Shown here one piece after another: positions 2,120 to 59,956 of a stretch of DNA of 64,000 nucleotides. Under the pieces are notes generated by a model. That model was given only the letters and a program-made list of their open reading frames with translations. It was not told where the DNA came from and ran no database searches. Origin of the DNA: Deltaproteobacteria bacterium (GTDB lineage Bacteria > Desulfobacterota > Desulfobacteria > Desulfobacterales > JAHEIW01); the NCBI GenBank assembly GCA_024639185.1, contig JAHEIW010000002.1, positions 2,842 through 66,841 on the forward strand. The letters run 5' to 3'. Positions within the stretch are counted from its first letter, which is position 1. The number at the start of each line of letters is the position of its first letter. A program made the translations under genes and the position numbers.

Positions 2120-2130
2120 ACGCAACCCCC

Positions 2131-38963: not shown

Positions 38964-38969
38964 AATTCG

Positions 38970-41866: not shown

Positions 41867-41882
41867 TGGCATACTCCATGCT
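41867..41882 (+). promoter_or_regulatory. Sigma-54 promoter upstream of the hdrD-like / hybrid HK / EBP operon
   Basis: Plus-strand sequence TGGCATACTCCATGCT, about 165 nt upstream of the ATG at 42047. Confidence 0.7.
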
Positions 41883-42046
41883 TTGAAATAATCAATGAAA
41901 AATCCGTACCACCTTCACCTCCAAAGCAGCAATTTGTAAGACACAAATAAATTTTTGAAAGGGGTTCTGTACCGCTGTATTTTCAATAATGTGAGCCTGC
42001 CGTACAGTTTCGTTTAACCGATAAAAAACAAACCAAGGAGGCCCAA

Positions 42047-43354: not shown

Positions 43355-43368
43355 TACAAGAGAAACCC

Positions 43369-44916
43369 ATGAACACACCCACTAAATGGAAAGTCGTCTT
43401 AATCGATGACGAAGAAGACATTCGAGATGTCCTGGCCGTTGCGCTTCGGGATAGCGGGTATGATGTCATTGCGGCAGAAGATGGCGAAACCGGCTTACGG
43501 TTGTGTGAAGAGACATCCCCCCAAATTGTCGTTACCGATATCCGCATGCCGGGGATGGACGGTCTCCAAGTATTAGAGGTTTTGAAAAACAAGACCCCCG
43601 ATATAGAGGTCATTGTGGCCACTGCATTCGGGGAGATGGACGTGGCTATTCAGGCGCTGCAGCTCGATGCTTCGGATTTTATCACCAAGCCCATCAGCGA
43701 CGAAGCTTTGCATCTGGCACTGAAACGCGCCAAAGCCCGCTTTAGCTCGAAAAAGCAGCTTAGAGACTACACCGCTCTTTTGGAGCGCGAGAAGGCGGAG
43801 ACAAGTCAAGAACTTTTTAAAACCCTATCTTTCCAGAAAAATTTAATTGCGCACTCCATCGACGGCATCCTGGGATGTGACGAAAACAAGCGGGTCATCA
43901 TCTATAATAAAAGCATGGAAAAGATGCTGGGTTACGAGAGCAACGAAGTGTTGCACAAAATGACATTTAGCCATTTTTTATCGCCCGGCGAGGAGCTGAA
44001 CTTTATTGCCGAACTGGAAGATGAGCGTTACGGTGGCAAACACAAGCTACAACTTTATGAAACCACCCTGAAGGCAAAATCCGGCCGCAGGATTCCTGTA
44101 CAAGTATCGGCGACCCCCTTATTTGACCATGAAAACGTCAATGGTCTAGTTTGTTTTTTCAGAGATCTGCAGGAAACCCGAAAGCTAGAAAGAGAAATGG
44201 AGGATCAGGCGCGCATCCTGCATCAGGACAAAATGATGTCTTTAGGACGACTGGCTGCCAGTGTGGTTCACGAGATCAACAACCCGTTAGCGGGAATTTT
44301 AAATTATCTGCGGCTGATGCTCCGGATCCTGGATGAGGAGCAGCTGACAGAAGAGCGGGTGGAAAAATTTAAGCATTATTTAAAGCTGGTCGAAAATGAA
44401 ATCAATCGATGCGCACAGATTGTATCCAGCTTGCTCAATTTCTCGCGCGTATCTCCGCCGGCCTTTGGCGAAGTCCGGATTAAAGAGCTCGTCGAACGCT
44501 GTATCATTTTGAGCCAGCACAAGCTGGAACTGAGCAACATCCAGCTGAAATATAGCATCCAAAATGGCATCCCTGCTGTCCGGGGCGACTTCAACCAACT
44601 GCAGCAATGTATCATCAATCTCATATTCAATGCAATCGATGCCATGTCGGAGGGAGGAACGTTGACCCTGCAAGGACACCATGAATCTGCGACAGGAAAA
44701 GTGGTAATAGCCATAAAAGACACCGGTCAGGGTATTGCCCCTGATGCTCTTCCGTATATTTTTGAACCTTTTTTTACGACGAAAAGTCAAGCTTTTGGCG
44801 TAGGACTCGGCTTGTCGACGGTTTACGGCATTATCGAACGACACAACGGCAGTGTTGATGTCGACAGTCAACCTGGGAAAGGTGCCGTGTTTACGCTAAA
44901 AATACCGGTTCTTTGA
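43369..44916 (+). CDS. Hybrid response regulator / histidine kinase (REC-PAS-HisKA-HATPase)
   Basis: REC (VVLIDDEED...VVTDIRMPGMDG...ITKP), a PAS domain, H-box VVHEINNPLAGI, and G-boxes DTGQGI / GVGLGLS. Confidence 0.9.
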   Translation: MNTPTKWKVVLIDDEEDIRDVLAVALRDSGYDVIAAEDGETGLRLCEETSPQIVVTDIRMPGMDGLQVLEVLKNKTPDIEVIVATAFGEMDVAIQALQLDASDFITKPISDEALHLALKRAKARFSSKKQLRDYTALLEREKAETSQELFKTLSFQKNLIAHSIDGILGCDENKRVIIYNKSMEKMLGYESNEVLHKMTFSHFLSPGEELNFIAELEDERYGGKHKLQLYETTLKAKSGRRIPVQVSATPLFDHENVNGLVCFFRDLQETRKLEREMEDQARILHQDKMMSLGRLAASVVHEINNPLAGILNYLRLMLRILDEEQLTEERVEKFKHYLKLVENEINRCAQIVSSLLNFSRVSPPAFGEVRIKELVERCIILSQHKLELSNIQLKYSIQNGIPAVRGDFNQLQQCIINLIFNAIDAMSEGGTLTLQGHHESATGKVVIAIKDTGQGIAPDALPYIFEPFFTTKSQAFGVGLGLSTVYGIIERHNGSVDVDSQPGKGAVFTLKIPVL

Positions 44917-44937
44917 TCCGACCCGCGAGGATCTGAC

Positions 44938-46677
44938 ATGAATCATGCCACAAATCCAAAGAAAACCAGTGTCCGGTCTGATGAATGGCTTGAGATTCTG
45001 GATGAAATAAATGTCGGCGCTTTTACGGTCGACAACAACCGGCGGGTTGCGTCGATGAACCTGAATGCCCAGGCTTTAATCGGAATGAAAGAAAGTGAGG
45101 CCATCGGAAAAGACTGCCGCGAGGTGTTTGTCGGGGTCCCCTGTCTGGCAAGGTGTCCGTTTAGCGGTTCATCAGATTCGGATACCGAAGAGCCGGTTAT
45201 TCAAATCGAGGACGAAAATCAACAACCCCATTTCGTCACCCGCATGGCAACGCCGGTTTATGGACGGAACCAATCGGCGGCCGGTTGTCTGACGATATTG
45301 CAGGACCATTCACCGATTGCCGATCTGATAGACCGCATTCATTATGAGGAGCGCAGTCTGAAAATAATTCTGGACAACCTTGATGTCGGAATTTTCACCG
45401 TCGACCGCAGTGGTCATATCACTTTTTTTAATACCGAGGCAGAAAAGATTTCAGGCTACAATCGTCGCGACGTTTTGGGTCAATCGTGTACGACGCTGTT
45501 TGAAGGCAAGGGCGTCCGGGATTTGTGTTTATTAAAAGAGTCCATCATTGATGGCGAATCACGCAGCAGCCAGCAGGGTAAAATGATGACACGAGACGGC
45601 GTGACCATCCCCATCCGGGCCAACTACATGGCGCTTCGCAACGAGAAAGGCACGATTGTGGGCGGGTTGGCGACGTTTCATGACCTGACCCTGATACGAC
45701 AGTTTAAGCAGGCGATGCGCAATCGCTATACCTTCCATGATATGGTTGGCAAAAGCCCACTGATGCAAAAAATTTTCGGGATGGTCAATATTGTCGCCTC
45801 CACAGATGCCACCATTCTGATCGAAGGCACAACGGGAACCGGCAAAGACCTGCTGGCCAAGGTCATCCATTCAGCCAGTCACAGGGCGAATAAACCATTT
45901 GTCAAAGTGAATTGCGCCGCCATACCCGATAACCTGATCGAATCGGAGATGTTCGGTTATGTCAAAGGCGCGTTTACCGGGGCCGAAAGAGATAAGATCG
46001 GGCGGTTCCAGGAGGCTGAGGGCGGCACCATTCTTTTAGATGAGATTGGTGATCTACCGCTCCCCTTGCAAGCTAAGCTGCTGCGCGTTATCGAAGATAA
46101 GGAATTTTATCGTTTGGGCAGCCGGCATACGATTAAAGTCAATACCCGCATAATTTCGGCCACAAACCGCAATCTCGAAAAGCTGGTAAAAAACCGGCTT
46201 TTCAGAGAAGATCTTTATTACCGGCTGAACGTGTTCCGTATCGAAATACCTACTCTAAGAGAGCGGCAAGACGATCTACCCCTCTTGATCGGTCACATTT
46301 TAAGACGCCTGGTTGCCGCAGCGGGGCAGCGGCCACCGGAAGTATCTGAAACGGTAATGAAAATTCTGCTGAACTACACCTATCCCGGAAACGTCAGAGA
46401 ACTGGAAAATATTTTAGAGCACGCCCTGATCACCTGCCAGCACGATACCCTCGAAGAGCGACATCTTCCCGAATATCTCATAAGCCCCCAAACCGCACGC
46501 CGACCCGGGCTGCGCGAGAAACAACAGCGCCTTCCGATCCCAGACAATCTGGAGTGTGATGATATTCTGGCCGCCCTCAACCAACACAACTGGCACCGCA
46601 TCCGGACCGCCAGGGCTTTGGGAATGGACCGCACCACGCTCTGGCGTAAGATGAAGAAATTCGGCCTCAGTGATTGA
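44938..46677 (+). CDS. Sigma-54-dependent transcriptional activator with two PAS sensor domains and no receiver
   Basis: Walker A GTTGTGKD, exact GAFTGA loop, ESEMFGY, and a C-terminal HTH ([21 protein letters not shown]). The first PAS carries C60/C69/C73 ([16 protein letters not shown]). Confidence 0.92.
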
Positions 46678-46686
46678 GCTTTTTTT
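46665..46686 (+). terminator. Weak terminator-like hairpin plus T7 run at the end of the EBP gene
   Basis: cctca-gtgat-tgagc followed by ttttttt. The stem is only 4-5 bp. Confidence 0.25.
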
Positions 46687-46742
46687 ATATTCTGACATAA
46701 AGCACCGCTGAACCCAGTTAGTGCAGCATATGTTGCAGATTC

Positions 46743-46754
46743 TGTTGTACAACA
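46743..46754. promoter_or_regulatory. Perfect palindrome TGTTGTACAACA, a candidate UAS for the hdr operon promoter
   Basis: 12-bp perfect palindrome. Related sites are TGCAGCATATGTTGCA (46722-46737) and TGTTGTAAATAGTGCAACA (46817-46835). All lie 85-200 bp upstream of the promoter at 46921. Confidence 0.4.
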
Positions 46755-46920
46755 CCGCGTCTTTAACCAAATTCATTATATTTTATATACTTACAGAGAT
46801 TACGGCCCACGCATCGTGTTGTAAATAGTGCAACATCATTGCGAGCCCCCGTCCTCAAATCATGATCACCACTCCGCTAACCCTCTGTAATTAATATCAT
46901 AGCTTTTTATTCCGCTCACC

Positions 46921-46936
46921 TGGCATAGTCTATGCT
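46921..46936 (+). promoter_or_regulatory. Sigma-54 promoter upstream of the REC-hdr operon
   Basis: Plus-strand sequence TGGCATAGTCTATGCT, about 75 nt upstream of the ATG at 47012. Confidence 0.7.
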
Positions 46937-47011
46937 CTTACAGGGGCCAAGACCCTTTACCAGGCGTGCTGAGCTTACCCATCATAGCGTCAGCGTTTCA
47001 GAGGATTTTAA

Positions 47012-47455
47012 ATGTCAAATCCCGTTGAAAGAAAGAAAATTCTTGTCGTTGATGACGAGGCGGATATGCGGATCTTTCTGTGTAATCTGTTGGGTAATTG
47101 CGGATTCCAGCCCATCGGCGCCGCTGATCGCATCGAAGGGATCCAAAAAGCAAAAGAACAAAAGCCGGCCTTGATTATCCTGGATGTAATGATGCCGAAG
47201 GAAAGCGGGATTCTGATGTATCGCCAACTCCGAGAAGACAAGAACCTCAGGAAAGTGCCGGTCATCATGGTATCGACCATCGATAAAAAGATGTTTTCAC
47301 GATACCAGAAATTGCAAAGCAGACCTCAAAAAACGGCCGCCGCCGAACCGGGCGCCTACCTGGAAATGCCCCTGGAAACCGAAGAACTGGTTCGGCTGGT
47401 GCGCAAGATGACGTCAACCACAGCATATGATGCTGCAAGGAAACTTGACAAATAA
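47012..47455 (+). CDS. Single-domain response regulator (atypical: the conserved Lys is replaced)
   Basis: KILVVDDEADMR...ALIILDVMMPKESG...VIMVST, but YLEMPL where receivers have xxKP. Confidence 0.8.
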   Translation: MSNPVERKKILVVDDEADMRIFLCNLLGNCGFQPIGAADRIEGIQKAKEQKPALIILDVMMPKESGILMYRQLREDKNLRKVPVIMVSTIDKKMFSRYQKLQSRPQKTAAAEPGAYLEMPLETEELVRLVRKMTSTTAYDAARKLDK

Positions 47456-47479
47456 CAGGACGCAAGAGGCACAGCCATT

Positions 47480-50400
47480 ATGTCTGTCAGAATAGGATTT
47501 TATATCTGCCACTGTGGAATCAACATCGCTTATAAAGTGCGCGTGGAAGAGGTCGCAGCCTTTGCCCTTAAATTGAAAAACGTGATCGTCGCCCGGGATT
47601 ATAAATTTATGTGCTCGGACCCGGGTCAGGTGATGATTGAAAAAGATATAAAGGAATTGGATTTGAATCGGGTCGTAGTGGCCTCATGTTCGCCGCGCTT
47701 GCACGGGAAAACGTTCATGGGGGTCTGCGAGCGCGCCGGGATTAATCCGTATTTTTTTCAAATGGCCTCGGTACGCGAACAGGTCTCCTGGGTAACGACC
47801 GATGAAAACGAAGCCACCGACAAAGCCAAAAGTCTGGCAGCGGCGGCCATTTATCGCGTCAACTACCATGAAAGCCTCGAAGCCCGTCAAGCCCCTGTAA
47901 ATCCTGATATGCTGGTGATTGGTGGCGGTATCGCCGGAATGCAGGCCGCCCTGGACATCGCCGACTCGGGCCATCAGGTCTATCTGGTGGAAAAGGATAC
48001 CACCATCGGCGGTCACATGCTGCAGTTTGATAAAACCTTCCCCACTCTGGATTGCGCCGCCTGCATTGGAACACCCAAAATGGTCGAGGTAGCGCAAAAT
48101 TCGAATATCAAACTGCTTTCATACAGTGAAGTGACGGATGTTTCCGGATTCATCGGAAATTATACGGTTAGCGTCCGACGCAAGCCCCGCTACGTAAAAG
48201 AGGACCTCTGCACCGGGTGCGGCGAATGTGAAAAGGTCTGTCCGGTGAGCATATCGAGCTCGTGGGATGCCGGGATAGGCACTCGCAAAGCCATTGGCCG
48301 CACGTTTCCGCAAGCCATTCCGATTACCTTTAACATCGAAAAAAAGGACCGGGCACCCTGTGTGGCGGCCTGCCCTGCGGGCACGAACGTGCAGGGGTAC
48401 ATCCAATTAATCGGCCAGGGCAAGTATGCGCAGGCGATCCAACTGATCATGGAGCGCATTCCGTTACCGGGGGTGCTGGGCCGGGTGTGCCCGCATTTCT
48501 GCGAGGCACAATGCCGCCGTGTTGAAATTGATGAGCCGGTAGCCATCCGGGAATTAAAGCGCTTTGTGGCCGATCAGGTGAACCTGGAAATGCTACCACC
48601 GCCGGAAATAAATGAACGTCCGGAAAAAGTGGCCATTGTGGGATCGGGCCCGGCCGGATTGACGGCGGCTTATTACTTGCGCTTGAAAGGATATCAGATA
48701 ACTCTCTTTGAAGCGCTAAAAGAATTGGGCGGCATGCTGCGTGTCGGTATCCCCGATTATCGCTTGCCGCCAGAAATTCTGGCAAAAGAAATCGATCACA
48801 TTCTGCGACTGGGTGTCGAAACCCGCACCGGCGTCCGATTCGGCGACGATTTCAGTATGAAGGATCTTGAACAGGAAGGTTTTTCAGCTGTTTTTCTCGC
48901 AGTGGGTGCCCATCGGTCGACCAAACTCGGCATCAACGCTGAAATGGACGCTGATGGAATTATCGATGCCCTGCAATTTTTAAGAAATATTAATCTTGGC
49001 TCTCGGACATCCCCTGGAAATGATGTGGTGGTTATCGGCGGCGGCAATGTGGCCATCGATGCGGCGCGGTCGGGCAAACGGTCAGGCACACACAAAATGA
49101 CGGTGGTATACCGCCGTTCAAAAGATGAGATGCCGGCCTATGCTGAAGACCTACAGGGCGCCATCGAAGAAGGAATTGACTTTTCATATCTAACGGCGCC
49201 GGTCCGCGTCCGGGTGAATAACGGCAAGGTTGTCGGGTTGGAATGTTTGCGCACCGAACTGGGCGCACCGGATGAAAGCGGCCGGCGCCGACCGGTTCCG
49301 CTGGAAGGATCCGAATTTCTGATCTCATGTGATGCCATCATTTCGGCGATCGGCCAGCGCGTCGATACCTCATGGGCCGATCAGATACCGGTTCTGAAAT
49401 GGTCGCAACGGGGAACGCTCGAAGTGGATCCTGACACCATGCAGACATCTGTGCCCCATGTATTTGCCGCCGGGGACGCCGTCAGCGGCCCGGCCACCGT
49501 CATTGAGGCCGTTGCTGCGGGACATCGGGCGGTCAAGGCCATAGAGCATTACCTGGCCGGCGAGGAAATGGAGGAAGCCCATGTACAAAAGGCCACCGCG
49601 AATCCCGGCACTCAAAATTGGCAGGCAATCCCCGAAAATGTTTCGAAGGCAGATCGCGCTGTGTCACGCCAAATCGTGGCTGCAAAGCGGATAACTTCTT
49701 TTGAAGAAATCGAACAGGGATTCTTAAAGGCTGAAGCCAGACAAGAAGCCCAGCGCTGTCTGAACTGCGGCATCTGTAGCGAATGCATGGAATGCGTCCA
49801 GGTCTGCGAGCCGCAGGCCATTGACCATTCCATGAAAGAAGAAGAAATAACCCTGGAGGTCGGCAGCATCATTATGGCCACCGGATACGACACCATGGAT
49901 CCCACACCTTTAAAACCCTATGGCTACGGTGTATATCCGAATGTTTTCACGGCGCTTGAATTCGAACGCCTGAGCAATGCAACCGGTCCCACCGGTGGAA
50001 AAATTCTGATTCGTGACGAAAACGGCGAATTCACGCGAACCCCGCAAAGTGTCGCTATCCTTCACTGTATCGGCAGCCGCGATGTGAATTACCACGAATA
50101 CTGCTCACGGGTGTGCTGTATGTATGCACTTAAATATACCCATCTTATCAAAGAAAAAGTGGGACATGATACCCAAGTGTATGATTTTTACATTGACATG
50201 CGCTGTTTTGGTGAGGGCTATGAGGAATTTTTCCGCCGCTGCCAGGAAGAAGGAACCATTTTCATACGCGGTAAGGTTGCCGAGATCACAGATAATGCCA
50301 TCCATCCCGGCGAAACGGGAAAACTCATTGCGCTGGGTGAAGACACGTTGCTTGCAAAGAAATTGCGGGTTCCGGTCGATATGGTGATTCTATGCACGGC

Positions 50401-50890
50401 TATGGAGGCCCGCGAGGATGCCGCCGATATGGGCCGCATTTTGGGTGTCAATTTAGGAGCCGATGGATTCTTTCTTGAAGAGCATCCGAAGCTGGGGCCG
50501 CTAAATACCGCAACCGACGGCGTATACCTTTGCGGGTGCTGTCAGAAACCATTGGATATCCCGGATACGGTTTCGCAGGCAAGCGGTGCAGCTGCGAAGG
50601 CCCTCTCGCTAGCTACCCGCGGAACGGTAGATATTTCACCGACAATATCCTGGATCGACCCGGACATTTGCATTGGATGCCAGACCTGCATTGAACTGTG
50701 TCCATACTCGGCGATTGAATTTGACAAGCGACGTGGTGTCTCGGTCGTCAATGAGGCGGTTTGCAAGGGATGCGGTAGCTGTTCGGCACATTGCCCCAGC
50801 GGAGCAGCTCGCAGCCGCCATTTTCAAAGCAGACAGATTTTTGCCGAAATTGATGGAATTTTAGAAACCGTCTCCCGGCTGGGACGGTAA
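47480..50890 (+). CDS. hdrL: HdrL-type large HdrA homologue: HdrA flavoprotein with an inserted GltD/NfnB-like NAD(P)H-binding module
   Basis: HdrA N-terminal domain (FYICHCGINIA...VVASCSPRLH). FAD fold MLVIGGGIAGMQAALDIA. HdrA signature HCIGSRD...YCSRVCCMY. Several CxxCxxCxxxCP ferredoxin motifs. Residues of about 290-700 look like the glutamate-synthase small subunit (GRVCPHFCEAQC; VAIVGSGPAGLTAAYYL; GGMLRVGIPDYRLP). Confidence 0.9.
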   Translation: MSVRIGFYICHCGINIAYKVRVEEVAAFALKLKNVIVARDYKFMCSDPGQVMIEKDIKELDLNRVVVASCSPRLHGKTFMGVCERAGINPYFFQMASVREQVSWVTTDENEATDKAKSLAAAAIYRVNYHESLEARQAPVNPDMLVIGGGIAGMQAALDIADSGHQVYLVEKDTTIGGHMLQFDKTFPTLDCAACIGTPKMVEVAQNSNIKLLSYSEVTDVSGFIGNYTVSVRRKPRYVKEDLCTGCGECEKVCPVSISSSWDAGIGTRKAIGRTFPQAIPITFNIEKKDRAPCVAACPAGTNVQGYIQLIGQGKYAQAIQLIMERIPLPGVLGRVCPHFCEAQCRRVEIDEPVAIRELKRFVADQVNLEMLPPPEINERPEKVAIVGSGPAGLTAAYYLRLKGYQITLFEALKELGGMLRVGIPDYRLPPEILAKEIDHILRLGVETRTGVRFGDDFSMKDLEQEGFSAVFLAVGAHRSTKLGINAEMDADGIIDALQFLRNINLGSRTSPGNDVVVIGGGNVAIDAARSGKRSGTHKMTVVYRRSKDEMPAYAEDLQGAIEEGIDFSYLTAPVRVRVNNGKVVGLECLRTELGAPDESGRRRPVPLEGSEFLISCDAIISAIGQRVDTSWADQIPVLKWSQRGTLEVDPDTMQTSVPHVFAAGDAVSGPATVIEAVAAGHRAVKAIEHYLAGEEMEEAHVQKATANPGTQNWQAIPENVSKADRAVSRQIVAAKRITSFEEIEQGFLKAEARQEAQRCLNCGICSECMECVQVCEPQAIDHSMKEEEITLEVGSIIMATGYDTMDPTPLKPYGYGVYPNVFTALEFERLSNATGPTGGKILIRDENGEFTRTPQSVAILHCIGSRDVNYHEYCSRVCCMYALKYTHLIKEKVGHDTQVYDFYIDMRCFGEGYEEFFRRCQEEGTIFIRGKVAEITDNAIHPGETGKLIALGEDTLLAKKLRVPVDMVILCTAMEAREDAADMGRILGVNLGADGFFLEEHPKLGPLNTATDGVYLCGCCQKPLDIPDTVSQASGAAAKALSLATRGTVDISPTISWIDPDICIGCQTCIELCPYSAIEFDKRRGVSVVNEAVCKGCGSCSAHCPSGAARSRHFQSRQIFAEIDGILETVSRLGR

Positions 50891-50908
50891 AAAAACAAGG
50901 AGCGCCTT

Positions 50909-51331
50909 ATGCAAGATTTTGAACCGACGATTATTGCCTTTGTCTGTAACTGGTGCACATACACGGCAGCAGATCTGGCCGGCACCTCCAGGCTGACCTA
51001 TCCTAAAAATGTGCGTTTGATTCGGGTGATGTGCACCGGCATGGTGGATCCTCAGTACGTCATCAAAGCTTTTTTGGAGGGGGCCGACGGCGTGCTGATC
51101 AGTGGCTGTCATCCGGGTGACTGTCATTACATCAATGGCAATTATAAAGCCCGCCGGCGCATTAAGCTTTTAAAGGAAATTCTGCCCCAATTCGGTTTTG
51201 AGCCCGAGCGGCTTCGATTAACCTGGATCGGCGCCAGCGACGGGATTCAATTTGCCGAAATTATGGATGAACTTGTCGACCAGGTCAAGGCTTTGGGACC
51301 CAATCAGGCAAAGCTCAAAATGGTCATTTAA
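50909..51331 (+). CDS. mvhD: Methyl-viologen-reducing hydrogenase delta subunit homologue
   Basis: 140 aa. IIAFVCNWCTYTAADLAG...VMCTG...ISGCHPGDCHY, the MvhD [2Fe-2S] Cys pattern. Confidence 0.9.
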   Translation: MQDFEPTIIAFVCNWCTYTAADLAGTSRLTYPKNVRLIRVMCTGMVDPQYVIKAFLEGADGVLISGCHPGDCHYINGNYKARRRIKLLKEILPQFGFEPERLRLTWIGASDGIQFAEIMDELVDQVKALGPNQAKLKMVI

Positions 51332-51444
51332 CTTTGGGTAATGGATATTGGGTATTCGGTATTGGTGGCCTAACACAAAAAGATGCAAACAGCAAACAAC
51401 TCGTACCAAATACCCAGTACCGAAAATCAAAATTGGAGATACCG

Positions 51445-52590
51445 ATGTCGATTACGGGAAAAATCGAGGTGCAAGACAAAGATATTTTAGGAGCTTTGGG
51501 AGCGTTTTTTAAGCGCGTTTTGGAAACAGATGACATCAACGCCATTTTGGTGCCGCAGCATCTTTCAATGAAAAATATGGTTATGCCGACGCTGGTAACA
51601 GATCCCGAACAGCTCAATGGTGTAGATCCCCTAGCACCGGCATTTCCCATGAATGCCGCTAAAATTGTTTCGCGTCTGACCCGTAAACAGATGGGATCTA
51701 AAATTGCGGTGGTGTTGCGCCCCTGCGAAATCCGAGCCTTTGTTGAACTGGTCAAACTCAAGCAAGGTCAAATGGACGAAGTGATGCTCATCGGCATGGA
51801 TTGCCTGGGCGCATTTCAAAACAAAGATTACCTGCAATATGTTGACAGGCACGGGGACAAATCCACCGAGCGCTTCTATCAAGACGTTTTGGATGGGAAG
51901 CAGGCAGACATAGAAGGTGCTACTTTGGCTTCAGCGTGTATGTCTTGCGAAAATCCGGTGCCCACAAATGCAGACATCCTGATCGGTCTATTTGGCGTTG
52001 AGATCGCGGATTATCTGTTGGTACAATCGCAAAGCAAACGCGGAACAAATCTTTTAAATCAGATGCACATGACCGAAATCCCAGAACCAGCCTCACGCCA
52101 GGATGCCATCACCGCCATCGTTGCGCAGCGCATTGCCTGCCGAGATGAAATGTTTGTCAGAACACGCGCAGCTACCGATAGCCTGGAAAAAATGACGGCC
52201 TATCTGGCCAATTGCGTCAATTGTTATAACTGCCGGGTGGCATGCCCGGTGTGTTACTGCAAGGAATGTGTTTTTGTAACCGATGTGTTTAACCATGATC
52301 CGTCTCAATACTTGCGATGGGCCAATCGGAAAGGCGTCATTAAAATGCCAACCGATACGCTCTTTTTCCATCTGACCCGCTTGGCCCATATGAGCACGGC
52401 CTGTGTGGGGTGCGGCCAATGTTCAAATGCCTGTCCAAATGGTATTCCGGTGATGGAGCTCTTTCGCACCATATCACAAAGCACCCAGCGCGCATTTGAA
52501 TATGAGGCCGGAAAAAGCATCCAGCAGGAACCGCCCCTTTCGGTATTTTATGAGGATGAATTTCCAGAGGTGGTTGGCATCAACAGTTAG
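51445..52590 (+). CDS. FrhB/FdhB-like Fe-S flavoprotein (F420-hydrogenase beta-subunit-like N-domain plus 2x[4Fe-4S])
   Basis: IAVVLRPCEIRAFVEL resembles the FrhB_FdhB N-domain. Ferredoxin motifs CVNCYNCRVACP and CVGCGQCSNACP. ATG at 51445 with GGAGA 6 nt upstream. The track start at 51334 lies in a structured spacer. Confidence 0.72.
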   Translation: MSITGKIEVQDKDILGALGAFFKRVLETDDINAILVPQHLSMKNMVMPTLVTDPEQLNGVDPLAPAFPMNAAKIVSRLTRKQMGSKIAVVLRPCEIRAFVELVKLKQGQMDEVMLIGMDCLGAFQNKDYLQYVDRHGDKSTERFYQDVLDGKQADIEGATLASACMSCENPVPTNADILIGLFGVEIADYLLVQSQSKRGTNLLNQMHMTEIPEPASRQDAITAIVAQRIACRDEMFVRTRAATDSLEKMTAYLANCVNCYNCRVACPVCYCKECVFVTDVFNHDPSQYLRWANRKGVIKMPTDTLFFHLTRLAHMSTACVGCGQCSNACPNGIPVMELFRTISQSTQRAFEYEAGKSIQQEPPLSVFYEDEFPEVVGINS

Positions 52591-52628
52591 CAAATTATTT
52601 AATAAACCTATGAAAGCGGGTGTTGCAT

Positions 52629-55600
52629 ATGGCTAGAAAAATCGGCAAAGCGCTGGTCGTCGGTGCTGGTATCGCCGGTATAAGAGCTGCTTTGGATTTA
52701 GCAGAGTCCGGTTATGGCGTCATTCTGATTGATAAGTCCCCGCATATAGGCGGGATCTTAAGCCAGCTCGATTACCAGTTCCCCACCGACCATTGCGGGA
52801 TGTGCAAAATGCTTCCGCTGGTGGACCGGGATGCCAGTTCGCAGTATTGTCTGCGCAAGGGTCTGTTTCATGAAAACATCGACATTACGTTATCCACAGA
52901 GCTTGTTTCCATCAAAGGAGAACCCGGCCAATTTCAGGTGATGCTGAAAGAACATCCGAACTGGGTGACCTCAGATCTTTGCACAGGCTGTGGCGAATGC
53001 GTTGACGCTTGTCCGATTGAGGTTCCGGATGAATTCAATTCCGGCCTGGGAACCCGTAAAGCAATTTATCTGCCGATACCCCATGCCATTCCAAATCCCT
53101 ATGTCATTGATTACACTGTGTGCACCCGCTGCGGTGCATGCGAAGAGATGTGCCCGACAGGCGCCATTAAAATTCCCGAAAAGGCCCGCGGGGACTTCCG
53201 CATTTTAGTTGTGGATGATGAACTGATCGTACGCGATTCATTAAAAGAATGGCTTGCGGAAGAGGGTTTTGCAGTCGATATGGCTGCATCCGGTCAGGAA
53301 GCGATAGAACAATTGTCTCAACAGACCTACCAGCTGATGCTTTTAGACTTAAAAATGCCCGAAATGGATGGTGTTGAGGTCTTGCAAAAAACCATTGATG
53401 AATTTCCCGATCTGGATGTCGTCATGATGACCGCCTACGCAACCGTGGAAACCGCTGTCGAAGCCATGAAAATCGGGGCCCTGGATTATCTGGTAAAGCC
53501 TTTTGATCCGGAAACCCTGATCCCCATGGTCAAACGCTTATATCAAGAGCGGGCTGCCTCTGAAGGTCGCCAGATTGAAGTTGGCGCAGTCGTGTTGTGC
53601 GGGGGCACCGCTTTTTTTGATCCGGCCAGCGGCAAAAATACGTTTGGTTATGGAATATTTCCCAACGTCGTCACCCACCTGGAATTCGAGCGGCTTTTAA
53701 GCGGTACCGGTCCTTATCACGGACAGCTTGTCAGACTGGGCGACGGCCAAGCGCTCCAAAAAATTGCCTGGATCCAATGTGTCGGTTCCAGAGACCTGCA
53801 GCTGGAAGCCGATTACTGTTCCAACATCTGCTGCATGGCAGCGATCAAGCAAGCACTGGTGGCCAAACAAAAGGCCCGCGGAAATTTAGATACAACCATT
53901 TTTTACATGGACATGCGCACCTTTGGAAAATCCTTCGAACGCTACCGGCAGCAGGCCGAGGCAAAACATGGCGTTCGGCTCAAAAGGGCGCGGATTCATA
54001 CGGTGGACCGGCATGCCGCTTGCGGCGATTTGATTCTGCGCGGCGTGGATCTGGCAGGACAATCCAGCGAAGAACGTTTCGACATGGTGGTTCTGACTGT
54101 CGGTCAACGGCCGATCGGTGGCGCAAATGACCTATCCGAATTGGCAGGAATAGAGCTAAATTCACTTGGTTTCGCGCAAACCGAAGCTTTTTCGTTAACG
54201 CGGTCCTCACGAAGCGGAATTGAACTGGGGGGATCATTTACGGGTCTAAAGGATATCAGTGATTCTGTTGTACAAGCGTCTGCCGCCGCTTTAAATGCCT
54301 CACGAATTCTGCATGCCGCCGGCGGCAGTCTGGCCCTAAAGTCCTCGTCATTCATACCATCGACCGATGTGCTGCGAGAAGTCCCCCGGATCCTGGTGAT
54401 CGTTTGTACCTGCGGTGTTCGGCTCCCGGCAGCCGTCGACACCCAAAAAGTCATCGAACAGCTCACGGCTGATCCGCTGGTTGATGGCGTCGATTTTGTC
54501 GAGCAAACCTGTACGGCCGCTGGATGGGAACATCTTGAAAAACGGGTCGCTGAAAGCAAACCAAATCGGATCCTGATCGGATCCTGCCTGCCATATGTCT
54601 ATAAGCGCAAGATTAAAGATCTCGGCCAGCGAATCGGTCTGAATCCGAGCCTCATCGACGTGGTCGATCTTGCATCTGAGTACCAGAAACACGTTTTAGA
54701 AAAAGAGCCCAAGGAGTTTATTACCCAAAATGTAACTTCCAAACTGGAGATGGGCATCGCCAGGCTAAAATGGATTGAACCGTCAGCACCCCCGGACATT
54801 CCGGTCATCCAGCGGGCACTGGTGATCGGTGGCGGCGTTGCCGGTATGACGGCCGCTTTGGCAATCGCCGATCATGGTTTTCAGGTGGATCTGGTGGAAC
54901 AAAATGATCGATTGGGTGGCAACCTCAACTGGTTGGAGCGAACGCTGGATGGGCACCAGCCCACAGAGTTGCTGCAACAAACGCGTACATCCGTAGAAAA
55001 ACATCCTCAAATACAGGTGCATACCCAAACGCGTGTGGTGCGCTCAACAGGCGAAGTAGGCCACTTTCAGACCACCATAACCGATGCGCAAAACACTGAG
55101 CAAACCCTGGATCATGCGGTCACCATATTGGCGACCGGTGGCAGGGAGGCCGCGACCTCCGCTTATGGGTACGGGACAAGCCCGGTCATTGTCACACAGA
55201 AGGAACTGGAAGAAAAACTGTCAAACCAACCATTGGATGCCACCCAATTACATTCAATCGCCATGATCCAGTGTGTGGATTCGCGCGAGGAGCCCCGAAA
55301 TTATTGCAGCCGCGTATGTTGCGCGAATGCTTTAAAGCACGCCCTGCACCTGAAAGAAATAAATCCTGACATTCAAATTTATATTCTCTATCGGGATATG
55401 ATGACCTACGGCTTTGACGAATCCTATTATACCCGGGCCCGCAAGGCCAACGTGATCTTCATCCAATATCAATTCACTGAAAAACCGCAGGTCATGGCTA
55501 ATCAAGAAAGTGTGCGCGTAACCGTCATTGATTCCATTATAAATAGGCCCATACAAATCGAGGCGGATCTTCTGGTGCTGGCCACCGGCATCATTCCCAA

Positions 55601-56054
55601 TCTGCCGACCCAGCTGGCTGAAACCTTCGGCGCCTCTGTGGATGAGGACGGCTTTTTTCAGGAGGCCGACAGCAAGTGGCGGCCGGTGGATTCACTCAAA
55701 GAAGGCGTTTTTGCCTGTGGCTTGGCCCACTCGCCGCGCAACATTGCCGAATCGATTACGACTGCCGAGGCAGCCGCCCAGCGTACGCTTAGAATATTAG
55801 GGCATGAGCGTCTGTCGGCGGGAAAGGTGGTCGCCAATGTTCATCATAGCCTTTGCAGTTTATGTGAACGCTGTATTGATGCCTGTCCTTATCGGGCCCG
55901 CAGCATTGATATGGATCAAGACAGAGTGCTGGTGAATCCGGCCATGTGCCAGGGATGCGGCTCCTGTGCCGCCATTTGCCCCAATGGGGCTTCGGTCCTG
56001 GAAGGATTTTTGGAACAACAAATGCTGGAAATGATCGACGCGGCCATCGGTTAG
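52629..56054 (+). CDS. hdrA: Tandem HdrA-like flavoprotein with an embedded CheY-like receiver domain (REC at about 53200-53575)
   Basis: Module 1: ALVVGAGIAGIRAALDLA, ferredoxin insert CTGCGECVDACP/CTRCGACEEMCP, then RILVVDDELIVRD...LMLLDLKMPEMDG...VVMMTAYA...YLVKPF, then IQCVGSRD...YCSNICCMA. Module 2: HdrA N-domain (ILVIVCTCGVRL...LIGSCLPY), ALVIGGGVAGMTAALAIA, IQCVDSRE...YCSRVCCAN, and a C-terminal 2x[4Fe-4S]. Confidence 0.9.
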   Translation: MARKIGKALVVGAGIAGIRAALDLAESGYGVILIDKSPHIGGILSQLDYQFPTDHCGMCKMLPLVDRDASSQYCLRKGLFHENIDITLSTELVSIKGEPGQFQVMLKEHPNWVTSDLCTGCGECVDACPIEVPDEFNSGLGTRKAIYLPIPHAIPNPYVIDYTVCTRCGACEEMCPTGAIKIPEKARGDFRILVVDDELIVRDSLKEWLAEEGFAVDMAASGQEAIEQLSQQTYQLMLLDLKMPEMDGVEVLQKTIDEFPDLDVVMMTAYATVETAVEAMKIGALDYLVKPFDPETLIPMVKRLYQERAASEGRQIEVGAVVLCGGTAFFDPASGKNTFGYGIFPNVVTHLEFERLLSGTGPYHGQLVRLGDGQALQKIAWIQCVGSRDLQLEADYCSNICCMAAIKQALVAKQKARGNLDTTIFYMDMRTFGKSFERYRQQAEAKHGVRLKRARIHTVDRHAACGDLILRGVDLAGQSSEERFDMVVLTVGQRPIGGANDLSELAGIELNSLGFAQTEAFSLTRSSRSGIELGGSFTGLKDISDSVVQASAAALNASRILHAAGGSLALKSSSFIPSTDVLREVPRILVIVCTCGVRLPAAVDTQKVIEQLTADPLVDGVDFVEQTCTAAGWEHLEKRVAESKPNRILIGSCLPYVYKRKIKDLGQRIGLNPSLIDVVDLASEYQKHVLEKEPKEFITQNVTSKLEMGIARLKWIEPSAPPDIPVIQRALVIGGGVAGMTAALAIADHGFQVDLVEQNDRLGGNLNWLERTLDGHQPTELLQQTRTSVEKHPQIQVHTQTRVVRSTGEVGHFQTTITDAQNTEQTLDHAVTILATGGREAATSAYGYGTSPVIVTQKELEEKLSNQPLDATQLHSIAMIQCVDSREEPRNYCSRVCCANALKHALHLKEINPDIQIYILYRDMMTYGFDESYYTRARKANVIFIQYQFTEKPQVMANQESVRVTVIDSIINRPIQIEADLLVLATGIIPNLPTQLAETFGASVDEDGFFQEADSKWRPVDSLKEGVFACGLAHSPRNIAESITTAEAAAQRTLRILGHERLSAGKVVANVHHSLCSLCERCIDACPYRARSIDMDQDRVLVNPAMCQGCGSCAAICPNGASVLEGFLEQQMLEMIDAAIG

Positions 56055-56118
56055 CTAATTCGTTATTGGTTATTTGTTATTCGTCGCAACGGCATCCCGC
56101 TGCAAAAAGGATGTTTTC

Positions 56119-56691
56119 ATGAAAACAGCAACAAATTTAGATGTATATTACGAAGCCGTTTCAGCTTCTGATAAGCTGGCACCCATTCAGGAAATGATAC
56201 GCGCCTGCATGCAATGCGGCACGTGCACCGGCAGCTGCCCCAATGCGTTTGCCATGGATTACACGCCCCGTCAACTCTGGCGTCTGGTATTGCTCGGACA
56301 AAAGGACGAAATTTTCCGGAGCAAAACATTTTCCTTATGCTCAGACTGTTACCTCTGCACGCTTCGCTGCCCGCGCGGTCTTCATCTGACGGAAGCCATG
56401 GATGCACTGAAACAGATAGCCGCCGGCGAAAATAGGGCTGAGTACAAATACAGTATCTTATTTAACAAAAATTTCATGCAAAGTGTTCGGCGGCACGGCC
56501 GCGTCAAGGAAATGGAATTTATGACGAATTATTTTACAGCCGTGAAAAATCCTCTGGTACCCTTCCGATTTGCTTCCTTGGGGATCAAGCTGATTGCGAA
56601 AGGAAAAGTTTCTGTCAGCTGGCTTCCCAAAGCACGGTTTCCTTTAGAGAAGATTTTTCAAAAAGTAAACGAGTTGGAGACACCCCCATGA
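56119..56691 (+). CDS. hdrC: Heterodisulfide reductase subunit C-like protein
   Basis: CMQCGTCTGSCP and CSDCYLCTLRCP, the two [4Fe-4S] motifs. The ATG at 56119 is preferred over the TTG at 56074. Confidence 0.85.
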   Translation: MKTATNLDVYYEAVSASDKLAPIQEMIRACMQCGTCTGSCPNAFAMDYTPRQLWRLVLLGQKDEIFRSKTFSLCSDCYLCTLRCPRGLHLTEAMDALKQIAAGENRAEYKYSILFNKNFMQSVRRHGRVKEMEFMTNYFTAVKNPLVPFRFASLGIKLIAKGKVSVSWLPKARFPLEKIFQKVNELETPP

Positions 56692-57563
56692 GATATCTAT
56701 ATTATCCCGGATGTTCCCTTGAGGGCACCGCTATTGAATACAACCTTTCCACCCGCTGCATCATGCACATGGCGGGGGTCGAACTGGTTGAAATAGATGA
56801 CTGGACCTGCTGCGGTGCCAGCGCTGCTGAGGCCACAAGCGATTTGCTTTCGCTGGCCCTGCCGGCGAGAAATCTCGCCATTGCCGAAAAAATGGAAGAT
56901 GTCGACGAAATTCTGGTCCCCTGCAGCGCCTGTTATCTGAATCTAAAAAAAGTAGAAGAAAAGACCCGTGGAGACCAGCGGATGATGAATACCTTAAACA
57001 CAATTTTAGCCGAAGAAAATCTTCGCCTACAGGGTCGGGCTGTTGTCCGGCATCTGCTGGATGTCATCGCCAATGATTTAGGTGCGCAAAAGATTCTGTC
57101 ATTGGTGAAGCATTCCCTCAGAGGCCTCATCATTGCCCCTTATTATGGCTGTCAATGTTTGCGGCCTTATACCGTATTTGATGACCCGGAGGTGCCGCAA
57201 TCCATGGAGCCGATTATTGAGGCCACCGGCGCAAAGGCCCACCATTGGGACATGGGGGCAACCTGCTGCGGCGCTTCTCATATGAATACCCGCATGGATG
57301 TGGGCATCGAGCTCGTCGCCCATATTTTGGAGGGGGCCAAAGGAGCCGATGCCATTGTTACCGTATGCCCGATGTGTCAGATGAATCTTGAGGCCCATCA
57401 GCGCAAAATTTCCCATTGGCGCCATGCAGAATTGGACATAACCATACTTTATCTGCCGCAGCTATTGGGACTGGCATTCGGTATTTCTGAAGAAGAGCTG
57501 GGGCTAAATTTGAATCTGTCCGCCAGTGACGCTTTTTTGGAGAAAATACAAAAGGCAGCCTAG
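56688..57563 (+). CDS. hdrB: Heterodisulfide reductase subunit B-like protein (two CCG domains)
   Basis: YYPGCSL...WTCCGAS...PCSACYLNL and YYGCQC...ATCCGAS...VCPMCQMNL. The ATGA overlap with the hdrC stop suggests translational coupling. Confidence 0.9.
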   Translation: MRYLYYPGCSLEGTAIEYNLSTRCIMHMAGVELVEIDDWTCCGASAAEATSDLLSLALPARNLAIAEKMEDVDEILVPCSACYLNLKKVEEKTRGDQRMMNTLNTILAEENLRLQGRAVVRHLLDVIANDLGAQKILSLVKHSLRGLIIAPYYGCQCLRPYTVFDDPEVPQSMEPIIEATGAKAHHWDMGATCCGASHMNTRMDVGIELVAHILEGAKGADAIVTVCPMCQMNLEAHQRKISHWRHAELDITILYLPQLLGLAFGISEEELGLNLNLSASDAFLEKIQKAA

Positions 57564-57649
57564 CAAACAATTTTTGAGTATGTTGACAAAAAAAGTAAAG
57601 AACAATTCAGATGATTTAAAGCTTAATCACAATTAGCAGTAACTTCGAA

Positions 57650-59956
57650 ATGCTCAACTATATATCCAAAATACGACACAGTTTAATTTCGAAACTAATT
57701 GTTTCCGTAGGCCTGGTGCTGTTGCTGTCTTTGGCAGTCTGGGCTTACTTCAACACCAATTATCAGAAAAACAAGTTTATGGCAGACATTATCTGCAGTA
57801 CGGACAGATTGACGAATACCATCCGGTTGGGTGCGCACTATGCCATGATGCTGAATTCACGCGATGACATCAATCAAATTATTCAAAATATCAGCAAGCA
57901 AAGGGAAATCGAAAATATTCGGATTTATAACAAGGAAGGAAAGATAAAATTTTCAAATGAATTAGCGGAAGTCGACAATACCACCAATATCGAAGCCGAA
58001 GCCTGTTATATCTGTCACCGTTCAGAACCACCTCTGTCAGAAGTGAGTCTGAATCAACGGACACGGATATTTAATTCTCCGAAGGGGTATCGGCTGCTGG
58101 GCATCATCAGCCCGATCCGCAACGAGCCAGGGTGTTCCACCGATGCCTGTCACGTGCACCCCAGGGGCAAACAAATTTTGGGTGCGCTGGATCTGGTGGT
58201 TTCGCTGAAGGATACCGATAAGGAAATCTTAAAAGCACAAAAAGGCATGATGGGACTGAGCGCATTTTTGTTTTTGCTGACTTCTGCCATCATCTTCATA
58301 TGTGTTTTGCGATTCGTCAACCGGCCAATCAAGAAATTAATCAATGGCACCCAAGAAATCGCAATCGGTAACTATCTGGACAAGGTGGCTGTCGATCAGG
58401 ATGATGAAATGAGTCAGCTGGCTGGGGCCATCAATCAAATGAGTGATGAAATTGCTAAAAAGCAGCTGGAACTGAACAAACAAAGAGACGAATATCAAAC
58501 ATTGTTTGAACGCGTGCCGTGCTTGATTACGGTTCAAGATAAAAATTTCAAGTTGTTAAGATATAATCGCGAATTTTTTGAACGCTTTGCCCCGCAGTCT
58601 GAGGATTTCTGCTTTCATGCTTACAAAGGCCGAGACGAAAAATGTGTCAATTGCCCGGTTGAAAAAACCTTTGAAGATGGTTTGCCCCACTATGGCGAAG
58701 AGACAGGGGTGTGCAAGGATGGCAGTATGACCTACTGGATCGTCAGAACGTCTCCGATTCTAAATGCCAGCGGTGAAATTGTGGCGGCAATGGAGATGAG
58801 CCTGGACATTACCGAAAGAAAACAACTTGAAGAAAAATTAAAGGCATCTGAGAAAAAATATCATGACATTTTCAACAATATGCCAAACCCGGTTTTCGTT
58901 TTGGATATGGATTCACTTGTAATTCTTGATTGCAATGCGAGTGTTAAGACCGTCTATGGTCATGACAAAGCGGAAACGCTTAATCGCTCCTTTTTAGAAC
59001 TATTTTATGAAGCTGATCGAAACAAATATGCATCTGAAATAAAGCAATCTGAAGTGATCAACCAAGTCAAACAGCGAACTCGGACAGGCAAAACAGTTTT
59101 TGTCAACATTCGGGTGTCACCGTGGAGCTATCAGGGCAAAGACGTATTGCTGGTCACTACCAGCGACATCACCAAGCGGCTTGAAACCGAGCAACAGCTC
59201 ATTCAGGCCAGCAAAATGGCAACTTTGGGAGAAATGGCAACCGGCGTTGCCCACGAACTCAACCAGCCGCTTTCGGTGATCAAAACCGCCAGCAGTTTTT
59301 CCATTAAGAAACTTGAGAAAAATGAGCCGATCGAATTCGAAATTCTGTCTAAGATCTTATTAAAAATAGATAGCAATGTTGATCGTGCTACACGTATCAT
59401 TAACCATATGCGACAGTTCGCCCGTAAATCAGATATGGACCTGGAAAGGGTATACGTCAACGATGTATTGAAAAATGCCTTTGAAATTTTCAGCCAGCAG
59501 TTGAAGTTACGCGGAATTGAAGTGCAGTGGCAGCTTGAGACAAACCTCCCACAAATTTATGCCGACCCCGGCCGTTTGGAACAGGTATTCATAAATCTTT
59601 TGCTAAATGCCAGAGACGCCATTGAAGCAAAATGGAATTACGCGGATGCCAAGCAGGAAAACAAAAAGATTACGCTGAAAACGATGCGTAACAGCCAAAC
59701 CGTTATCTGCGAGGTTTGTGACACGGGAATAGGCGTTCCGGAAGCCATCACCGATAAAATTTTTGAACCCTTTTTTACCACCAAGGAGGTCGGTAACGGC
59801 ACCGGGTTGGGATTAGCCATCAGTTACGGGATCATCAAAGACTGCGGCGGCAGTATACAGGTTGGGTCAAACAAACCAAACGGGGCGTGCTTTATCCTAA
59901 AATTTCCGATTCCGGAAACAACAGATGAAAATGAAAAAGAAAATATTACTCGTTGA
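57650..59956 (+). CDS. Sensor histidine kinase with a periplasmic domain carrying c-type haem-binding motifs, HAMP, 2 PAS, HisKA and HATPase
   Basis: TM1 at about aa 15-34 and TM2 at about aa 203-220. The periplasmic domain has CYICH (CxxCH, nt 58004-58018) and CSTDACH (Cx4CH, nt 58133-58153). H-box [12 protein letters not shown]-boxes DTGIGV / GTGLGLA. Confidence 0.9.

Follow-up and report, generated by a model that had tools for sequence, protein, structure and literature searches.

A widespread HdrABC/HdrL-type gene cluster in a Desulfobacterales genome, with a receiver domain inserted in an asymmetric tandem HdrA

Which reaction is served by an operon that combines three HdrA units with an entry module for NAD(P)H, and how might it be controlled? 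The operon in question occupies positions 47012-57563 on the plus strand of a 64,000-nucleotide (nt) stretch of contig JAHEIW010000002.1, here called the window, the closest named relatives of which are metagenome-assembled genomes (MAGs) of the Desulfobacterales. It is a member of a type of heterodisulfide reductase (Hdr) cluster that has been known since 2009 and is widespread in the Desulfobacterota. We consider it probable that the operon encodes a cytoplasmic HdrABC/HdrL-type system, a bifurcating disulfide reductase linked to NAD(P)H and ferredoxin, under the control of sigma-54 and of receiver phosphorylation.

The seven open reading frames (ORFs) of the operon are arranged head to tail, and the domains of each were borne out by Pfam (Table 1). 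The first-pass annotation, which was made from the letters and ORF translations of the window, had described seven same-strand genes with mostly short gaps and an ATGA overlap between hdrC and hdrB. All seven ORFs are present, the gaps from the receiver gene to hdrC measure 24, 18, 113, 38 and 64 nt, and the overlap comprises 4 nt. The three HdrA units that it had counted were likewise recovered, one in HdrL and two in the tandem HdrA. The start of the tandem HdrA is ATG 52629, where an identical database protein of 1141 amino acids (aa) begins, and that of hdrC is most likely ATG 56119, with AAGGA just before it. For the FrhB-like gene, a TTG start at 51334 was dropped in favour of ATG 51445, which gives the length of 381 aa found in 120 of the 120 homologues listed.

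Table 1. Features of the operon and of its surroundings, in window coordinates
Feature	Position	Strand	Evidence and remarks
Single-domain receiver (REC)	47012-47455	+	Pfam Response_reg E 4e-15; first gene in 9 loci
HdrL, 1136 aa	47480-50890	+	HdrA-like with Pfam Fer4_20 and Pyr_redox_2; NCBIfam NF009410 above cut-off
MvhD-type [2Fe-2S] connector subunit	50909-51331	+	Pfam FlpD E 7e-56; NCBIfam VhuD E 2.5e-42, below cut-off
FrhB/FdhB/ElpB-like iron-sulfur (possibly flavin) subunit, 381 aa	51445-52590	+	Pfam FrhB_FdhB_C E 5e-9 and dicluster motifs
HdrA-REC-HdrA, fused pseudo-dimer, 1141 aa	52629-56054	+	Pfam Response_reg at 195-304, E 1e-30
HdrC-like, two [4Fe-4S] motifs	56119-56691	+	Pfam Fer4_17; TIGR03290 E 1e-22, below cut-off
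HdrB-like, two CCG domains (predicted disulfide-reducing site)	56688-57563	+	Pfam CCG, two stretches, E 3e-25; TIGR03288 E 2e-50, below cut-off
Sigma-54-type promoter motif TGGCATAGTCTATGCT	46921-46936	+	75 nt upstream of REC start
Candidate activator-binding sites TAGTGCAGCATATGTTGCA and TAGTGCAACAT	46719-46737; 46826-46836	+	direct and palindromic repeats
Sigma-54 enhancer-binding protein, PAS-PAS-AAA+-HTH_8, without receiver	44938-46677	+	Pfam Sigma54_activat E 1e-70, HTH_8
Sigma-54-type promoter motif TGGCATACTCCATGCT	41867-41882	+	165 nt before ATG 42047; precedes Sec-hdrD, kinase and activator genes
HdrD-type protein (HdrC+HdrB fusion) with selenocysteine (Sec)	42047-43354	+	in-frame TGA 42776-42778, LNTE-U-GH
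Hybrid histidine kinase, REC-PAS-HisKA-HATPase	43369-44916	+	Pfam; homologues flank cluster in most related loci
Membrane sensor kinase, extracytoplasmic CxxCH domain then HAMP-PAS-PAS-HisKA-HATPase	57650-59956	+	Pfam
REC-HATPase kinase	59925-61091	+	Pfam; start overlaps end of previous gene by 32 nt; co-conserved with previous kinase

The first large protein, HdrL, contains a second enzyme module within an HdrA. Its residues 4-288 align to residues 13-298 of the HdrA in the solved structure 8rvu and its residues 765-1129 to residues 300-654, and because both pieces together align along the solved protein, HdrL represents a complete HdrA. The 476 residues between them (289-764) form an NfnB/GltD-like module for flavin adenine dinucleotide (FAD) and NAD(P)H, with two Rossmann motifs, which sits exactly between HdrA residues 298 and 300, that is, between the two cluster motifs of the inserted ferredoxin domain. 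Pfam placed Fer4_20 at residues 291-367 and Pyr_redox_2 at 383-681 (E 2e-43), and residues 290-772 matched NfnB of T. maritima (4ylf_B, E 7e-93); the module also matched the large subunit of NfnI from P. furiosus (5jca_L, E 2e-83) and larger relatives at up to E 1e-123 (9bov_A). The first-pass annotation had quoted three GltD/NfnB-like peptides, all of which are found in the HdrL translation, and it had stated that its finding would fall if domain searches did not confirm the insert; the searches confirmed it. It had also used the name HdrL with reference to Desulfobacterium autotrophicum, correctly so, since Strittmatter et al. (2009; PMC2702500) described hdrL of that species as a fusion of a heterodisulfide reductase with glutamate synthase that has an NADH site. 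In bifurcating transhydrogenases of the NfnAB and StnABC types (4YLF, 5JCA, 8OH5, 9N5U), the homologous NfnB-type subunit contains FAD, a pair of [4Fe-4S] clusters and a site for NAD(P)H, and the module in HdrL is of this subunit type. In contrast to NfnAB, it is an insert in HdrA and not a separate subunit, and no NfnA-type partner subunit is encoded in the operon.

The second large protein aligns to the HdrA of 8rvu in four pieces, and its domain arrangement identifies it as a fused pseudo-heterodimer with complementary domains. Unit 1 (residues 1-186 and 309-575) has a thioredoxin reductase (TrxR)-like FAD domain and an inserted ferredoxin domain, the first part of the FAD domain together with the ferredoxin domain covering residues 7-184 and the rest of the FAD domain residues 312-508. 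Unit 2 (residues 576-1141) consists of the HdrA N-terminal domain (583-757), a TrxR-like FAD domain that lacks the ferredoxin insert, and the C-terminal ferredoxin domain (962-1140). In unit 1, the FPTDHCGMC cysteines are present and the N-terminal domain as well as the C-terminal one is absent, and the converse applies to unit 2; this distribution of the cysteines holds for all relatives examined. Sequence identity between the two units is only ~30%, and the AlphaFold2 (AF2) model of the fused protein is of moderate quality, with a predicted local distance difference test score (pLDDT) of 67.8 and a predicted template modelling score (pTM) of 0.57. Chadwick et al. (2022; PMC9012536) rested their case for fused archaeal HdrAs as intramolecular heterodimers on the same complementarity. 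The fused or tandem HdrAs of anaerobic methanotrophic archaea (HdrA3/4, 5/6, 12/13; PMC9012536) are also single polypeptides of more than 1000 residues with two HdrA units, in which the N-terminal domain and the 'Cys197' ligand are found in complementary units. They differ from the protein studied here in that the order of the units is reversed, the Cys unit coming first in the window protein, in their partners, and in that the archaeal proteins as described have no receiver domain.

That receiver domain, of the CheY type, is located at residues 190-308, directly after the inserted ferredoxin domain of unit 1. The Pfam match covers positions 1-110 of the 111 positions of Response_reg, and residues 187-309 of the AF2 model form five alternating strand/helix pairs, the (beta-alpha)5 fold of CheY, with pLDDT values of mostly 71-88. 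It contains the acidic pair, acceptor Asp, Thr/Ser and Lys of a phospho-accepting receiver. The quintet, D196, D197, D240, T268 and K290, is invariant in 120 of the 120 homologues listed, at 64-100% identity, and also in ~29 loci down to 49% identity. The junction from ferredoxin domain through receiver to flavin domain is spanned in one stretch by roughly 15-20 representative clusters (50% clustering); the family of HdrA proteins with a receiver is real and of moderate size. The searchable literature yielded no account of an HdrA that contains a receiver domain. In the solved archaeal Elp-Hdr and Fdh-Hdr complexes, electrons exit through the inserted ferredoxin domain of HdrA (PMC12350162), and both insertions in the operon are therefore at the electron-exit domain, the NfnB-like module inside it in HdrL and the receiver right after it in the tandem HdrA.

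Between the two large genes lie those for the MvhD-type connector and the FrhB-like subunit. The AF2 model of the latter is confident for residues 1-250 and poor over the iron-sulfur half, with pLDDT below 50 from residue 256. The top Foldseek match of this model was ElpB in the Elp-Hdr assembly of Methanothermobacter (8rvu_E; E 4e-15, TM 0.63), and FdhB in the Fdh-Hdr-Fmd assembly of Methanospirillum (7bkb_E) was recovered at E 4e-15, with further matches to FrhB, Fsr and plant HCAR. The subunit has 15 invariant cysteines and only 23% identity to ElpB, and Pfam did not detect an FrhB_FdhB_N domain in it. It has the ElpB/FdhB fold with several [4Fe-4S] clusters, the C-terminal half at low confidence. 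In the solved archaeal complexes, electrons pass from ElpB/FdhB through iron-sulfur clusters to the HdrA N-terminal domain and MvhD/ElpC, and from there to the bifurcating FAD (PMC12350162).

The last two proteins show the features known from methanogens, two ferredoxin-type cluster motifs in HdrC and two CCG domains in HdrB, and all the iron-sulfur and CCG cysteines are invariant among homologues. The NCBIfam scores are below the equivalog cut-offs, with 697 of 1100 for HdrA2, 547 of 1400 for HdrA, 80.5 of 160 for HdrC and 172 of 345 for HdrB. No methanogenesis genes were seen in the window, and the relatives of the window proteins are bacterial.

We compared the operon to gene clusters that have been described previously. 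The first-pass annotation had called the module unusual, a view that could not be upheld, since the arrangement is known from locus VIII of D. autotrophicum and from Sfum_0819-0824 of Syntrophobacter fumaroxidans and is shared by ~30 loci. Locus VIII of D. autotrophicum HRM2 has the same gene set, hdrL, mvhD, fdhB, hdrA4, hdrC and hdrB, followed by hdrD2 (PMC2702500). Its arrangement was called hdrACB-like, an HdrD gene is nearby as in the window, and response regulator, histidine kinase and CheY-like genes are drawn alongside the hdr loci of this species (PMC2702500). The likeness to locus VIII is taken from the published description, the 80 loci that we compared being from other genomes, and neither a receiver domain nor a tandem structure of HdrA4 is mentioned in that description (PMC2702500). 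The HdrL of the window has a Cys where some of the D. autotrophicum HdrL proteins have Sec.

The HdrABC/HdrL cluster of S. fumaroxidans (Sfum_0819-0824; Sedano-Nunez et al., 2018; PMC5947623) contains HdrABC, MvhD, HdrL and an iron-sulfur protein similar to a formate dehydrogenase (Fdh) or hydrogenase beta subunit and, as in the window operon, no catalytic subunit of a hydrogenase or Fdh. The proteins were abundant in the proteome with sulfate and detected only then, and the authors speculate on a confurcation linked to DsrC (PMC5947623). The window operon corresponds to this cluster type, with an HdrL fusion followed on the same strand by mvhD, the FdhB/FrhB-like gene, hdrA, hdrC and hdrB. 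Three loci from Syntrophobacter and Syntrophobacteraceae MAGs (L011, L014, L018) have the gene order of the window and a receiver in HdrA, at only ~53-64% identity to the window proteins, from which we infer that Sfum_0819-0821 also carries the receiver.

The operon shares with the archaeal Elp-Hdr and Fdh-Hdr complexes the core of HdrA/B/C, the connector (MvhD/ElpC) and a subunit of ~380 residues with the ElpB/FdhB fold. The donor in those complexes is F420H2 or formate, with the subunit ElpA or FdhA, whereas no ElpA/FdhA partner gene was found in the operon or among the window ORFs scanned. Unlike in the archaeal complexes, one HdrA carries an NfnB-like NAD(P)H module and the other is a fused, asymmetric pseudo-dimer with a receiver. 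A paralogous tandem HdrA with 36-39% identity and no receiver, followed by MvhD, is encoded next to MetV and MetF in the MetFV-HdrABC-MvhD clusters (L077-type loci), which have a receiver gene and kinases downstream. The window cluster differs from these by HdrL, the FrhB-like subunit and the receiver insert, and an identity as a MetFV-type methylene-tetrahydrofolate reductase was rejected because both MetF and MetV are absent from the window.

The comparison of gene neighbourhoods across the Desulfobacterota, which the first-pass annotation had suggested as a check, was based on one genome per species and yielded more than 589 relatives of the tandem HdrA, with gene order compared in the best 80 loci. 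The order HdrL-MvhD-FrhB-like-HdrAA-HdrC-HdrB recurs in ~30 of these, at 46-76% identity of the tandem HdrA, in Desulfobacterales, Syntrophobacteria, Desulfobacula and Desulfamplus. Several variants were observed. In ~7 loci, HdrL is present and the tandem HdrA has no receiver. In seven loci of the Desulfovibrionaceae type (L022, L023, L025, L026, L027, L033, L044), an ordinary HdrA that lacks the NfnB-like insert takes the place of HdrL, and NAD(P)H can therefore not be the universal donor of the cluster family. The receiver of these seven loci is of full length (113-116 residues), with a degenerate quintet (DPDGH, HSDYT, AGDIT, TPDAR, SADTK or SADAK) in which the acidic pair, and often the Thr or Lys too, has been lost. 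Receiver-less loci with a tandem HdrA and MvhD that are more distant belong to the MetV/MetF clusters. HdrCB is replaced inside the operon by a Sec-HdrD in L019 and L030. In L019, which is the closest species-representative locus, a membrane HdrE/D-like fusion of 764 residues is encoded at 1086-3380 (+), between the receiver gene and hdrL, and might in some genomes connect the system with the membrane or the quinone pool. The sequence of this protein reads as an HdrC-like part, transmembrane helices, and again an HdrC-like part with CCG domains.

To search for partners, ORFs without a match in the flanking 10 kb of 39 receiver-type loci were clustered into families. The recurrent families that were assigned included universal stress proteins (8 loci) and the membrane HdrE/D-like protein (6 loci), and also TetR, Etf and acyl-CoA ligase genes that are specific to clades; the top-ranked family, also from 8 loci, looks like a spurious ORF. 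No recurrent Fdh, hydrogenase, Dsr or Qmo partner was recognised in these flanks, among which a handful of families were assigned by eye, and no constant known partner emerged from the comparison. The absence of a hydrogenase, Fdh, Dsr or Qmo partner from the window, noted in the first-pass annotation, holds for the window ORFs scanned.

On the basis of the composition of the operon and by analogy with the solved Hdr complexes, a flavin-based bifurcating or confurcating function of the system is most likely. The same role, a soluble multi-flavin complex that couples NAD(P)H, ferredoxin and a disulfide, has been speculated for the published clusters (PMC2702500, PMC5947623). NAD(P)H would give a hydride to the NfnB-like flavin nested in HdrL, and the electrons would then pass along a chain of [4Fe-4S] clusters to the [2Fe-2S] cluster of MvhD and on to the ElpB/FdhB-like subunit. 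They would be bifurcated, or in the reverse direction confurcated, at the flavins of the fused HdrA pseudo-dimer, which would have one entry side and one exit on the ferredoxin side. The high-potential branch would lead through HdrC to the two CCG-domain clusters of HdrB for the reduction of a disulfide or trisulfide, for which DsrC is the candidate acceptor favoured in the literature on sulfate reducers. The low-potential branch would enter or leave at the single inserted ferredoxin domain, in exchange with ferredoxin. In sulfate reducers and syntrophs, complexes of the HdrL type rank among the most widespread candidates for linking NAD(P)H, ferredoxin and DsrC that await characterisation. 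The window operon represents no new kind of system, but the comparison yields a sharper picture of a known one, with an asymmetric HdrA pseudo-dimer that has one entry arm and one exit domain, two insertions at the exit domain and co-conserved kinases.

Several observations weigh against a single NAD(P)H-linked, phosphorylation-controlled disulfide reductase. The searchable literature, in which only three papers name both HdrL and MvhD, yielded no biochemical study of an HdrL-containing complex, dsrC is absent from the window, the model of the FrhB-like subunit is poor over the iron-sulfur half and its flavin binding is putative. In the seven Desulfovibrionaceae-type loci, both the NfnB-like insert of the first HdrA and the acidic pocket, Thr or Lys of the receiver are missing. 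The modules also occur apart: in Desulfonema magnum, HdrA(REC)A-HdrC-HdrB is encoded with no gene for HdrL, MvhD or an FrhB-like protein within 10 kb, and in D. autotrophicum, pairs of hdrL and mvhD are located elsewhere as well, beside dsrABC or fdhA (PMC2702500). The separate occurrence of the modules in these two species would be expected if the operon encoded two co-regulated enzymes, an NAD(P)H:ferredoxin-type oxidoreductase made of HdrL and MvhD, perhaps with the FrhB-like subunit, and an independent HdrA(REC)A-HdrC-HdrB disulfide reductase that communicates with it through common carrier pools. The disulfide-reducing partner is interchangeable, being HdrCB in the window, Sec-HdrD in soluble form in L019 and L030 and the membrane HdrE/D-like fusion in L019, which is also in line with two enzymes. 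Nevertheless, the strict order HdrL-MvhD-FrhB-like-HdrAA in ~30 loci from several families argues for a single complex, and we regard two separate enzymes as rather unlikely.

A second alternative concerns the receiver, which could be structural, for example a docking or dimerisation surface that is not phosphorylated, with the kinases serving transcription only. The degenerate quintets of the seven Desulfovibrionaceae-type loci demonstrate that the domain can persist without phosphotransfer, and the tandem HdrA of the MetFV-type clusters does without a receiver altogether. However, the invariance of the quintet in the homologues listed and in ~29 loci is hard to explain without selection for phosphotransfer. 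In addition, the three kinases of the window cluster have no gene for a DNA-binding response regulator next to them, and outside of kinases the cluster has just two receivers, that of HdrA and the single-domain one. A pseudo-receiver in the window protein thus seems improbable to us, and phosphorylation of the HdrA receiver by the co-encoded kinases, which would tune electron exit or the assembly of the complex, is the preferred reading. A functional receiver would exemplify the direct control of an energy-conserving redox enzyme by a two-component system.

In three Syntrophobacteraceae loci, the receiver of an adjacent NtrC-type regulator shares 50-52% identity with the one in HdrA of that locus, which suggests a common ancestry and possibly a common kinase. 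We tentatively propose, as a possibility that goes beyond the reading preferred above and has less in its favour, that the bifurcating flavoenzyme is a direct output of a His-Asp phosphorelay, in which phosphorylation of D240 at the hinge between ferredoxin and flavin domains might switch or re-route bifurcation, and the same kinase might drive sigma-54 transcription through the paralogous NtrC-type receiver. What remains of interest is the biochemistry of HdrL-type complexes and the conserved, apparently phosphorylatable receiver beside the electron-exit domain of HdrA. The single-domain receiver encoded by the first gene has a Met at residue 118 (YLEMP), in contrast to the conserved Lys (YLEKP or YIEKP) of 10 of the 10 orthologues from 9 loci, and its family has a long insertion between the fourth and fifth strands.

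The sigma-54-type promoter motif that the first-pass annotation had placed in front of the operon is present. The motif has the -24 GG and -12 GC elements, a gene for an enhancer-binding protein adjoins it, and rpoN is present in the genome. The pattern TGGCAY-N5-WTGCW matched 5 times in the window as compared to 0.47 matches expected, a number that was reached in 0 of 100 shuffles, and the sites at 36602, 41867 and 46921 are each located upstream of one or more genes on the same strand. A near-identical motif, TGGCACAGTCTATGCT, precedes the orthologous receiver gene in L010, L019 and L030, and in 9 of 30 orthologous loci the first gene is preceded by a site that scores at least 10 of 11, as compared to 1.35% of random 400-nt windows. 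Transcription from this promoter would be driven by the adjacent PAS-containing activator, homologues of which adjoin the cluster in many loci. A repeated motif, TAGTGCA(G/A)CAT or ATGTTGCA, is located 85-200 nt upstream of the sigma-54 motif at 46921, and ATGTTGCAC recurs upstream of the orthologous operon or its first gene in L010, L019, L030 and L029; the repeats at 46719-46737 and 46826-46836 are candidate binding sites for the activator. The promoter at 41867 has a different upstream repeat, AATTTCGAAATTTT, and a common activator for both promoters is therefore not supported.

The rpoN gene lies in the window itself (2131-3567, minus strand), next to an ABC-transporter ATPase gene (3569-4291; Pfam ABC_tran only). 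The site at 36602-36617 (-), TGGCATACATCATGCA, is ~160 nt upstream of a gene for a CooS-type CO dehydrogenase (34410-36440, minus strand; Prismane family, E 2e-172), beside which lie genes for a universal stress protein (36894-37394, -) and for an NtrC-type regulator with its kinase (37575-41648, -). The two remaining matches to the pattern are at 21538-21553 (-) and 26396-26411 (-).

The operon is part of a block of twelve same-strand genes (41867-61091), consisting of Sec-hdrD, the hybrid kinase, the activator, the seven operon genes and two kinases, and the unit probably extends upstream to Sec-HdrD, the hybrid kinase and the activator and downstream to the two kinases. Terminator-like sites within the block were not commoner than in shuffled sequences, and none was found on the plus strand between hdrB and the next two kinase genes. 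A single transcript for the operon is plausible from these sequence features.

Kinase, receiver and sigma-54 activator genes flank almost every locus, irrespective of whether HdrA has a receiver insert. Orthologues of the membrane sensor kinase at 57650 were identified directly downstream of the cluster in seven loci (L010, L014, L019, L020, L021, L029, L034). Its extracytoplasmic domain (residues ~95-200) has a CxxCH motif (CYICH) and a second C-x3/4-CH motif, and a PAS domain (residues ~300-350) contains C-x12-C-x2-C. These Cys motifs are kept in the window protein and 8 orthologues, which suggests a redox sensor that binds haem c or a metal. Similar Cys-PAS motifs were seen in the activator (44938-46677) and in a kinase at 62217-63302. 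The regulatory genes around nearly all loci and the Cys-rich PAS and CxxCH domains could also mean that the Hdr-like proteins serve mainly as a sensor that reports the state of NAD(P)H, ferredoxin or thiols to a phosphorelay via the receiver instead of carrying bulk catabolic flow, but this is very improbable, as all motifs for catalytic cofactors, those in the two CCG domains of HdrB among them, are intact as well as invariant, and the abundance of the S. fumaroxidans counterpart under sulfate reduction is a better fit to an enzyme.

The hdrD gene at the upstream end of the block has one in-frame TGA that links two ORFs of the same frame. We identify HdrD as a selenoprotein because 8 orthologues, which come from different genera, have the TGA at the same position. 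The gene would be broken into two by an ORF caller. A small hairpin follows the TGA at ~42794-42812, although its folding energy is not significant for a selenocysteine insertion sequence (z = -0.95). The best NCBIfam matches of the protein were HmcF, TmcB and DsrK, all below the cut-off. An orthologue with 87% identity is encoded between the frhB-like gene and hdrA-REC-hdrA in L019, and that of L030 is split into pieces of 73-88% identity; since the orthologue lies inside the operon in these two loci, we count Sec-HdrD as part of the system.

The G+C content of the hdr block (42001-56000) is 0.49-0.55, as compared to 0.38-0.46 in most of the region from 14 to 42 kb. It is 0.42-0.46 beyond 56 kb and ~0.51 in the recA/alaS region (6-12 kb).

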